Shown: in pieces, positions 15,611 through 15,975 of the stretch
Numbering within the stretch: position 1 is the first letter of the stretch
Layout of the letters: every line of letters starts with the position of its first letter
The notes under the pieces: generated by a model
Seen by the model: the letters and a program-made list of their open reading frames with translations, nothing else
What the model was told of the DNA's origin: nothing
Databases searched by the model: none
Source of the DNA: Candidatus Latescibacterota bacterium
Lineage (GTDB): Bacteria > Latescibacterota > UBA2968
Assembly: GCA_965222605.1 (NCBI GenBank)
Contig: OZ244960.1
Span: forward strand, 1,952,001 to 2,016,000
Direction of reading: 5' to 3'
Length of the DNA stretch: 64,000 nt
Made by a program: the position numbers and the translations under genes

Positions 15611-15664
15611 TATATGGCAAGCCTCGGGCTTAACCTGAGTGAATCAAAAAAATTTATTTTTAAC

Positions 15665-15694
15665 TTGCGCGGCGCAGCACAGATTATGTATATT
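15665..15694 (+). promoter_or_regulatory. Putative promoter of the Cascade operon (TTGCGC-18 bp-TATATT), with AAC PAM (15662-15664) and protospacer-like target (15665-15680)
   Basis: AT-rich UP-like tract upstream; TTGCGCGGCGCAGCAC matches the mini-array spacer at 15/16 nt. Confidence 0.7.
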
Positions 15695-15723
15695 TGACCT
15701 TCCATCACCCAAGGAGGCCAAAT

Positions 15724-15975
15724 ATGAAACGACAGGGATCCCTCGTTATTGAACGAGAACGCATTACTGAACGCATCAGTTTCCAAATAGAGATTTGGGA
15801 AGACGATCACAGATTTCATCCCGCAGAAAAACAGCCAAACTCAGGATCCGCATCCTCCGACTCATCGGAGATAGTCCATTGCGAGGCGCAGCACCAGCAC
15901 AAGGACTCTCGTTTCCCCGCCCAAGCGGGGTTTCTACCACTCCCGAGCAGAAGTCATAACAGGCGAACACCATGA
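15724..15975 (+). CDS. Small 83-aa leader ORF of unknown function, overlapping the mini-array and the cas8e start
   Basis: AAGGAGG RBS 6 nt upstream of ATG; stop overlaps the cas8e start codon (ATGA). Confidence 0.45.
   Translation: MKRQGSLVIERERITERISFQIEIWEDDHRFHPAEKQPNSGSASSDSSEIVHCEAQHQHKDSRFPAQAGFLPLPSRSHNRRTP
15850..15938 (+). ncRNA. CRISPR-like regulatory RNA (CreR/CreA-like mini-array): pseudo-repeat 15850-15877, spacer about 15878-15909, pseudo-repeat 15910-15938
   Basis: GCATCCTCCGACTCATCGGAGATAGTCC and CGTTTCCCCGCCCAAGCGGGGTTTCTACC versus array repeat GGTTTCCCCGTGTGTACGGGGATAGACC. The 6-bp stem and 4-nt loop are kept; spacing is 60 bp versus 61 in the array; the spacer matches the upstream promoter. 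Confidence 0.85.

Follow-up and report, generated by a model that had tools for sequence, protein, structure and literature searches.

The window analyzed here, a stretch of 64,000 nucleotides from a Candidatus Latescibacterota bacterium (assembly GCA_965222605.1, contig OZ244960.1, positions 1,952,001 to 2,016,000 of the forward strand), carries on its + strand a complete type I-E CRISPR-Cas locus in the order cas3, cas8e, cse2, cas7, cas5, cas6e, cas1 and cas2, together with an array of stem-loop repeats that has a 61-nt period. In the 361-nt spacer between cas3 and cas8e we found two degenerate copies of the array repeat enclosing a pseudo-spacer, the first half of which matches a site further upstream in the same spacer. 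Judged from its sequence, this element is very likely a regulatory mini-array of the CreR type, similar to a CRISPR RNA (crRNA) unit. A preliminary description of the region had proposed such a CreR/CreA-like reading, and conservation and co-variation in related loci now support it strongly. The features that characterize a CreR sequence were found here, namely two degenerate repeats at array spacing, the handles and a partial match proximal to the protospacer adjacent motif (PAM), the functions of promoter and PAM being predicted.

The array repeat consists of GGTTT, the hairpin CCCCGT gtgt ACGGGG, ATAGACC and one variable base. Its first degenerate copy, psiR1 (15850-15878, + strand), shows a GCATC flank, the hairpin CTCCGA ctca TCGGAG (15855-15870) and an 8-nt 5' handle, ATAGTCCA (15871-15878), which corresponds to ATAGACCN in the array. 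After a pseudo-spacer of 31 nt (15879-15909, + strand) comes the second copy, psiR2 (15910-15938, + strand), formed by CGTTT, the hairpin CCCCGC ccaa GCGGGG (15915-15930) and a degenerate 3' part, TTTCTACC. What psiR2 retains is GTTTCCCCG....CGGGG, and this same pattern was observed in 26 loci, described below. Both copies keep a 6-bp stem and a 4-nt loop in register with the array repeat, their hairpins start 60 nt apart, compared to 61 nt in the array, and both hairpins are present in the minimum-energy and centroid RNA folds of 15840-15945. Everything that the preliminary description had stated about the sequence of the repeats (two degenerate copies 60 bp apart, preserved stem and loop, a handle on psiR1) holds. 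When the window was scanned with a degenerate stem-plus-handle pattern, CGGAGATAGTCC at 15866 was the sole exact match outside the array; similar sequences at 4758, 59306, 60107 and 63003 lacked a hairpin and were discarded. An Rfam search of 15600-16000 for known RNA families, at E values up to 10, returned only a meaningless match to a long non-coding RNA (E 0.99).

The protospacer-like target lies at 15665-15680 on the + strand and is preceded, at the PAM position, by the trinucleotide AAC (15662-15664, + strand). Direct reading confirmed the match described previously: pseudo-spacer positions 1 to 16 (TTGCGAGGCGCAGCAC, 15879-15894) and the target (TTGCGCGGCGCAGCAC) are identical in 15 of 16 nucleotides, the mismatch falling at spacer position 6. 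The pattern TTGCGNGGCGCAGCAC, in which position 6 is free, occurred only three times with up to one mismatch in the whole genome of 6,338,376 bases. Two of these occurrences, the sole exact ones, are the spacer and the target sites, 214 nt apart, and the reversed pattern, used as a control in the same scan, gave one match. The third site (4395192, - strand) has one mismatch, is located inside a 458-codon open reading frame (ORF) with GTA in front, and was judged a chance match. Within the window, 12-mer seed matches of the guide numbered four, with 2.3 expected. We also looked for phage mimics of the guide by scanning viral contigs for handle plus seed; the seven contigs recovered share one homologous phage gene with no flanking hairpins, and were likewise attributed to chance.

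The preliminary description had suggested, as a check set beforehand, that spacer and promoter should co-vary in homologous cas3-cas8e regions. A Cas8e-based scan, with one genome per species, gave 80 loci, or 81 with the window. The motif sought in the 450 nt that precede cas8e in each of them combined a handle AT...CC with a CCCCG...CGGGG hairpin and had a variable spacer in between. These motif scans were set up once the first examples were known, and the loci are connected by descent and transfer, so that the counts that follow do not represent independent events. The mini-array (handle AT...CC plus a psiR2 of the form CCCCGC-N4-GCGGGG) was present in 26 of the 81 loci, the window included. 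They come from metagenome-assembled genomes (MAGs) labelled with many phyla, all of them among the loci of higher Cas8e identity. No mini-array was found among the Chloroflexota-labelled loci (43-46% Cas8e identity), a result that may be explained by the scan being tied to this repeat type. The distance from the end of the psiR2 hairpin to the cas8e start was 24-41 nt in 25 of the 26 loci and is 41 nt in the window, and the psiR1 stem adjoins the handle in 23 of them. Stem pairs of psiR1 change on both sides at once (T-A in 16 versus C-G in 7; G-C in 21 versus A-T in 2; A-T in 15, G-C in 2 and C-G in 2).

Targets were then sought over 680 nt upstream, on both strands, using spacer positions 1-17 with positions 6 and 12 ignored, that is, 15 scored positions. 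In all 26 loci the best match was on the + strand, and in 25 it scored at least 13 of 15, the second-best matches reaching 9-12. For the first 18 loci, the controls attained a score of at least 13 with only 1 of 242 spacers from other loci and 1 of 900 shuffled spacers. The pseudo-spacers of 18 loci form at least eight unrelated sequence groups, each matching its own upstream site, so matching has persisted through changes of sequence. The co-variation anticipated by the preliminary description is thus found.

The mismatches between spacer and target follow a marked periodicity. In 18 loci they fell at position 6 in 16, at position 12 in 14 and at position 18 in 13, whereas each of the other positions from 1 to 17 was mismatched in none to three loci. 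Counted by eye, eight further loci showed mismatches at position 6 in six and at position 12 in seven. Such a 6-nt periodicity is known as a footprint of Cascade. Every sixth base of the guide is flipped out in the complex, and a mismatch at every sixth position has been noted (Shmakov et al., bioRxiv 10.1101/2023.03.03.530964, in the part of the text compared). The earlier view that the position-6 mismatch costs little is backed by these counts, and neither a protein operator nor a duplication nor decay would readily account for the periodicity.

At the PAM position the trinucleotide begins with A in all 26 loci (AAC in 9, AAT in 9, AGT in 5, and AAG, AGC and ATT in one each). The pseudo-spacers measure 20 nt (6 loci), 31-33 nt (18) or 44 nt (2), in steps of 12 nt, and natural guides one Cascade repeat unit shorter or longer seem to be tolerated. 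A guide of 20 nt cannot form a full R-loop at all.

The closest relative, L003, is a MAG labelled Candidatus Latescibacterota that belongs, by computed kinship, to the same genus as the genome of the window, and its Cas8e is 87% identical. It retains the arrangement in full. Identity to the window is complete in psiR1 (21/21), handle (8/8) and psiR2 (21/21), 50/50 altogether, and reaches 15/16 in pseudo-spacer positions 1-16; it amounts to 10/15 in positions 17-31, 34/51 in the spacer region upstream of the PAM and 29/41 from psiR2 to the cas8e start, the flanks of the mini-array being 66-84% identical. The conserved segments are exactly those that would matter in a crRNA. A G to A change at spacer position 13 of L003 is mirrored in its target, which also differs at position 6, and the PAM position reads AAT. 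A DNA match to the region, sought in 61 relatives and then in all 31 genomes of the family, was found only in the window's own genome and in G002.

The best sigma-70-like pair near the target is TTGCGC (15665-15670) and TATATT (15689-15694), separated by 18 nt on the + strand; in L003 it is kept as TTGCGT, 17 nt and TATATT. Directly 5' of the PAM and of this putative -35 box there is an A/T-rich run (15646-15661, + strand) that, by its sequence, is possibly an UP-like element. The preliminary description had the target preceded by AAC and covering the -35 box: the AAC is indeed there, whereas the coverage of the -35 is a prediction only. In most sister loci, inspected by eye, a TTGAC-type -35 and a -10 stand directly before or over the target. 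Thus, the target is always located at a predicted promoter, with an exact placement that varies between loci. In six loci (L050, L022, L019, L037, L070 and L020) the PAM is the 3' end of the predicted -10 hexamer (among them TACAAT, GATAAT, TAGTGT and CATAGT), and because of this coincidence the choice of PAM seems to be constrained by the promoter. Concerning the native PAM, 35 of the 66 array units have C after ATAGACC, 20 have T, 6 have A and 5 have G; this base is either the last of the repeat or the first of the spacer. In E. coli type I-E systems the base that follows the repeat handle is carried over from the PAM. If that applies here, the C or T in 55 of 66 units would make AAC or AAT the native motif, which suggests an acquisition PAM of the AAY type.

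A scan of 15300-16300 revealed no + strand terminator after cas3 and neither promoter-like nor terminator-like sites between the target and cas8e. For this reason the simplest source of cas8e transcripts would be the targeted promoter or read-through out of cas3. The guide follows the target and immediately precedes cas8e, so the promoter that it would repress most likely makes the guide itself. Four public runs (two DNA and two RNA libraries) were available as contigs only, in which ends, strands and levels cannot be read, and they speak neither for nor against expression. A contig of 7,823 nt from an RNA library spans the whole stretch at about 87% identity and may be DNA carry-over; short contigs of a size-fractionated RNA run cover 15798-15888 only. 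An 11-nt inverted repeat (15690-15700 and 15715-15725, 91% complementary) is absent as such in L003; in transcripts begun upstream it might bring the -10 region into pairing with the start codon and the end of the Shine-Dalgarno sequence.

According to the mechanism that we propose, the promoter, probably TTGCGC-18-TATATT at 15665-15694, would transcribe a leader containing an ORF and the mini-array, and then cas8e, cse2, cas7, cas5 and cas6e. Cas6e, whose gene is intact at the locus according to Pfam, would cut after both hairpins, at about 15870/15871 and 15930/15931, to release an RNA of about 60 nt in which the 31-nt guide stands between the handle ATAGTCCA and a hairpin at the 3' end. Cascade loaded with this guide would recognize AAC and pair with the 16 nt at 15665-15680. 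A partial R-loop that does not license Cas3 is an established state of E. coli Cascade. Since 16 nt of pairing are too short for a full R-loop, Cascade would bind here in that manner, block RNA polymerase and stop transcription initiation. The promoter would thereby shut itself off once Cascade and guide suffice, and would reopen when crRNAs of the array titrate Cascade or anti-CRISPRs inactivate it. It is from the arrangement of the sequence that we infer that the guide is transcribed, processed and bound, and that repression takes place without cleavage by Cas3.

Contrary to the preliminary description, which took the element to be free of ORF annotation, an 83-codon frame (15724-15975, + strand) spans the whole mini-array. 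It starts 7 nt after a perfect AAGGAGG Shine-Dalgarno sequence (15711-15717, + strand; GAGGAGG in L003), traverses psiR1, the pseudo-spacer and psiR2, and ends in a TGA that overlaps the ATG of cas8e (ATGA); cas8e has no clear Shine-Dalgarno sequence of its own. For the comparison of this frame among loci we called short-type those with the target up to 360 nt before cas8e (n=16) and long-type the remainder (n=10). In 16/16 short-type and 3/10 long-type loci, and in 524 of 3200 shuffles, an ORF of at least 50 codons extends across the mini-array and has its stop codon no more than 25 nt from the cas8e start. Gene callers have annotated the ORF. We read the frame as a real, translated ORF. Twelve close homologues (62-86% identity) keep residues 1-29, vary in 30-42 and keep the part encoded by psiR1, handle and seed, with two variants of the tail frame. 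Over codons 1-29 the ratio of non-synonymous to synonymous change (pN/pS) between the window and L003 was 0.24, as calculated from 10 changes only (5 synonymous and 5 non-synonymous). From a shallow alignment, AlphaFold predicted a single beta-hairpin at residues 2-26, followed by a disordered tail encoded by the mini-array; 27 residues were confidently modelled (predicted local distance difference test, pLDDT, of 79-83 in the block) and the rest had low confidence (mean pLDDT 63.9, predicted template modelling score 0.25). The peptide is highly charged and has no hydrophobic segment.

Searches for relatives of the ORF product gave no match in Pfam (E up to 0.01), NCBIfam or PHROGs; PADLOC was not covered. 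HMMER against 1.84 billion representatives found no distant homologue beyond the ORF's own cluster, the Atlas search scored at most 0.78, and none of the 35 pattern matches from a scan of metagenome contigs with the ORF alignment was confirmed. The N-terminal parts cannot be aligned between subfamilies (window versus others, E of at least 0.46 among 16 sequences). The frame of the ORF relative to the handle also differs between loci, and in L003 the tail is frameshifted yet open. Codon usage is ordinary (mean synonymous-codon fraction 0.39, compared to 0.38 in long ORFs), and the start is not followed by a run of rare codons; codons 2-12 show no unusual rarity, and CGA, with a fraction of 0.14, is not conserved as Arg in the homologues. 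The ORF may be a coupling leader, a functional small peptide or a repressed toxin.

The 10 long-type loci carry, between the targeted promoter and the mini-array, a tRNA-like element in place of the ORF. ARAGORN called a tRNA-Ala (UGC or AGC) in 5 of the 14 loci scanned (L004, L012, L015, L016 and L021, at about 2600-2790 in each), two of which were confirmed by Rfam, and degenerate forms with an enlarged anticodon loop were recognized by eye in L019, L020, L027, L036 and L070. The acceptor stem of the forms called by ARAGORN shows C3:G70 and U73, next to a 3-bp D stem, whereas alanine tRNAs are expected to have G3:U70. The element may serve in processing, be the scar of an integration or represent a repressed cargo. 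In L070 its 5' part is found in three tandem copies. No tRNA was found in 12000-27000 of the window.

Several observations weigh against a CreR in the window. Its predicted promoter has a weak -35 (3/6 to TTGACA), and a stricter promoter scan of 15300-16300 found no site at threshold in the cas3-cas8e spacer. The target of most sister loci coincides with the -10 or follows it and does not cover the -35, so the true promoter of the window could be a different one, for example one ending just before AAC. AAC is not the canonical E. coli PAM, the spacer-target score of locus L011 is only 11, and L003 has an additional uncompensated mismatch at position 9, outside the seed. The guide lies within an ORF that looks translated, and ribosomes and Cas6e would compete for the same RNA. 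Finally, some close relatives (contigs of runs X4 and X19, compared with 15609-15958 of the window) join cas3 to cas8e by 109-114 unrelated nucleotides and lack the module, which is therefore dispensable and behaves as a replaceable cassette. Could the element then be a decayed array remnant, a chance repeat or a pair of operator sites for a protein, with no guide function? The 16-mer contains a near-palindrome, TGCGC-G-GCGCA, of the kind typical of protein operators, and 15/16 matches are expected somewhere in a window of 64 kb. We nevertheless consider this very improbable, as the 6.3-Mb genome contains no other such spacer-target pair, the second copy always stands exactly 8 nt after a repeat-like hairpin, the A-initial trinucleotide occurs only at the upstream copy, and the lineage-specific sequences stay matched with mismatches every sixth position. 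Gene conversion between both copies would also have copied positions 6, 12 and 18, and this is not the case.

The two remaining explanations concern the ORF. According to one, the ORF is a translated leader whose peptide is irrelevant: its translation would avert premature termination and deliver ribosomes to cas8e through the ATGA overlap, the guide would still repress the promoter, and excision by Cas6e would sever the ORF from cas8e as an added post-transcriptional brake. This has a reasonable chance of being right, if less than an even one. The stop codon is kept close to cas8e in every short-type locus in spite of the unrelated sequences between subfamilies, the frame shifts against the handle and survives the frameshift in L003, cas8e appears to lack its own ribosome-binding site, and where the ORF is missing a structured tRNA-like element takes its position. 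Yet, the conservation of the N-terminal 29 residues in the subfamily of the window (pN/pS as given above) hints at a function of the peptide, and the roles in Rho-dependent termination and coupling are purely conjectural. The other explanation is an addiction or abortive module of the CreTA/CrePA type, in which the repressed promoter holds down a harmful product of the 83-codon ORF, or its RNA, and the loss or inhibition of Cascade would arrest the cell; since cas8e is on the same transcript, this is compatible with Cas autorepression. The ORF with its strong AAGGAGG is the first thing behind the target, it is maintained in all short-type loci far more often than in shuffles, and its N-terminal part is both conserved in close homologues and predicted to fold as a beta-hairpin. 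In addition, the known CreT genes combine a strong Shine-Dalgarno sequence with a mini-ORF, and CreP, of 103 residues, is encoded in a cas3-csy1 spacer, as far as the portions of those reports compared indicate. We regard an addiction module as unlikely, however, given that no toxin or other family was matched, rare codons are missing after the start, the N-terminal parts diverge beyond alignment between subfamilies while the tail frame shifts between close relatives, and the charged peptide offers no hydrophobic segment; moreover, the toxin of the known CreTA modules is a separate gene that does not contain the guide.

Repression by a CreR has been demonstrated for the type I-E locus of Salmonella enterica, tested in E. 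coli, where the block is relieved when array crRNAs or anti-CRISPRs take Cascade away (Liu et al., bioRxiv 10.1101/2023.03.10.532045). As far as the sections of that preprint compared here go, the two elements agree in a degenerate two-repeat mini-CRISPR upstream of casA/cas8e, in the 5' handle of psiR1 and the 3' handle kept by psiR2, in about 15 PAM-proximal nucleotides matching a site at the promoter of the Cascade operon, and in the proposed outcome, a Cascade autorepression that senses crRNA load and anti-CRISPRs. They differ in the PAM (AAC in the window, AAG in Salmonella), in the distance from target to cas8e (307 nt versus about 140 bp) and in the location of the guide, which in the window is inside an ORF coupled to cas8e, an ORF of a kind that those sections do not mention for Salmonella. 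Mini-arrays between cas3 and cas8 have been predicted in about 19% of bacterial type I-E loci (Shmakov et al., bioRxiv 10.1101/2023.03.03.530964), and the I-E and I-F1 examples in the text compared share with the window the long cas3-cas8 spacer and a partial match to the cas8 promoter next to a PAM. In E. coli, the example that they give is a mini-array with a start region of its own and with the target further downstream, whereas in the window the target is upstream and the guide is part of the cas8e leader. According to the same text, the pipeline of these authors kept only repeat-like matches that do not overlap ORFs, so that the ORF-embedded layout would be dropped wherever the ORF is annotated.

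The CreTA modules of the type I-B systems of Haloarcula hispanica and Halobacterium hubeiense and the CrePA module of the type I-F system of Acinetobacter baylyi, as the excerpts compared describe them, also employ a crRNA-like RNA and Cascade to repress, inside the cas locus, a promoter that first expresses a small gene with a strong ribosome-binding site. The design of H. hispanica CreT comprises a strong Shine-Dalgarno sequence, an efficient start that leads straight into rare codons, and a stable stem-loop; in the window the Shine-Dalgarno sequence and the ATG are present and the rare codons that would characterize an RNA toxin are absent. The CrePA toxin is a KilAC-domain protein of about 103 residues repressed by CreA. 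In the ORF of the window no Pfam match (E up to 0.01) was obtained and a single beta-hairpin fold is predicted. The ORF thus has neither the rare-codon pair nor the KilAC domain, and neither sequence features nor family matches indicate toxicity. What separates a CreR from a CreA is that no toxin gene accompanies it; in the window the ORF behind the target is conserved in position. Unlike in these modules, where the guide stands beside the small gene, here it overlaps that gene and is followed by the cas8e operon on the same strand. A further parallel is the autorepression of Cas9 by the long form of the trans-activating crRNA (tracrRNA), in which a natural, non-canonical partial-match guide also makes the effector repress its own promoter; that system, however, belongs to a class 2 single-protein effector and uses a different RNA with no mini-array.

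The class of element is therefore a known one, as the preliminary description had stated, and already published for type I-E; in view of the parts of the CreR and mini-array reports compared, the locus of the window is a variant in layout rather than a new kind. The differences in layout are the position of the guide, downstream of the target and inside an ORF coupled to cas8e, and the tRNA-like element of the sister loci. No ORF-embedded or tRNA-associated mini-array appears in the published accounts compared, although loci of this clade may already be listed in the tables that supplement the two 2023 preprints, and those accounts likewise contain no CreTA-type module for type I-E, a subject on which no dedicated literature search was made.

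Autorepression of Cas proteins by degenerate mini-arrays is a recent concept that has been tested in a handful of model strains. If the CreR reading is correct, the window and its 25 relatives from uncultivated bacteria would provide independent evolutionary proof of principle, with guides and targets that drift together, and the pattern of that drift (free positions 6, 12 and 18, length steps of 12 nt) would reveal the geometry of Cascade from sequence alone. The ORF-embedded layout would probably be missed by annotation-based surveys. On the practical side, Cascade-based repression can draw on these loci for partial-match guides of natural origin, for shortened guides and for PAM variants. 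Were the ORF or the tRNA-like element a repressed effector, the idea of toxin guards would extend to type I-E. One may further imagine a leader cassette in three parts: a cargo repressed by Cascade (the beta-hairpin peptide, or the tRNA-like RNA in sister loci), a guide excised from the transcript and frame of this cargo, and then cas8e. We consider such a cassette doubtful. If it were true, the cargo would be a Cascade-repressed effector, a toxin or an alarm, making the module a type I-E analogue of CreTA; excision by Cas6e would uncouple the translation of cas8e; and about 300 nt would combine transcriptional feedback, post-transcriptional feedback and a penalty against anti-CRISPRs.

The surrounding genes are those of an ordinary type I-E locus. 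cas3 (13010-15610, + strand) encodes an HD nuclease and helicase (Pfam Cas3_HD, 1.4e-25; Cas3-like_C_2, 2.3e-30). cas8e, or cse1 (15972-17552, + strand), gave a weak match to CRISPR_Cse1 (2e-4), below the curated cut-off, and the match of Cas1 was also weak; Cas8e relatives are nonetheless abundant (358 by tblastn). The genes cse2, cas7, cas5, cas6e, cas1 and cas2 occupy 17461-21964 on the + strand, with a Pfam match for each. The array (22023-26077, + strand) has 66 perfect repeat cores at the 61-nt period plus a degenerate last repeat (26049-26077), and because it is the last repeat that is degenerate the leader is placed on the cas2 side. The cas2 stop is separated from the first repeat by 58 nt; this gap, where the leader is expected, contains a repeat-like hairpin, CCCCGT-ctattt-ACGGGG (21981-21998). 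On the other side of the locus, about 560 nt upstream of cas3, a TnpB/IS605 OrfB-like gene (11315-12448, - strand) shows Cas12f1-like TNB, OrfB_IS605 and HTH domains.

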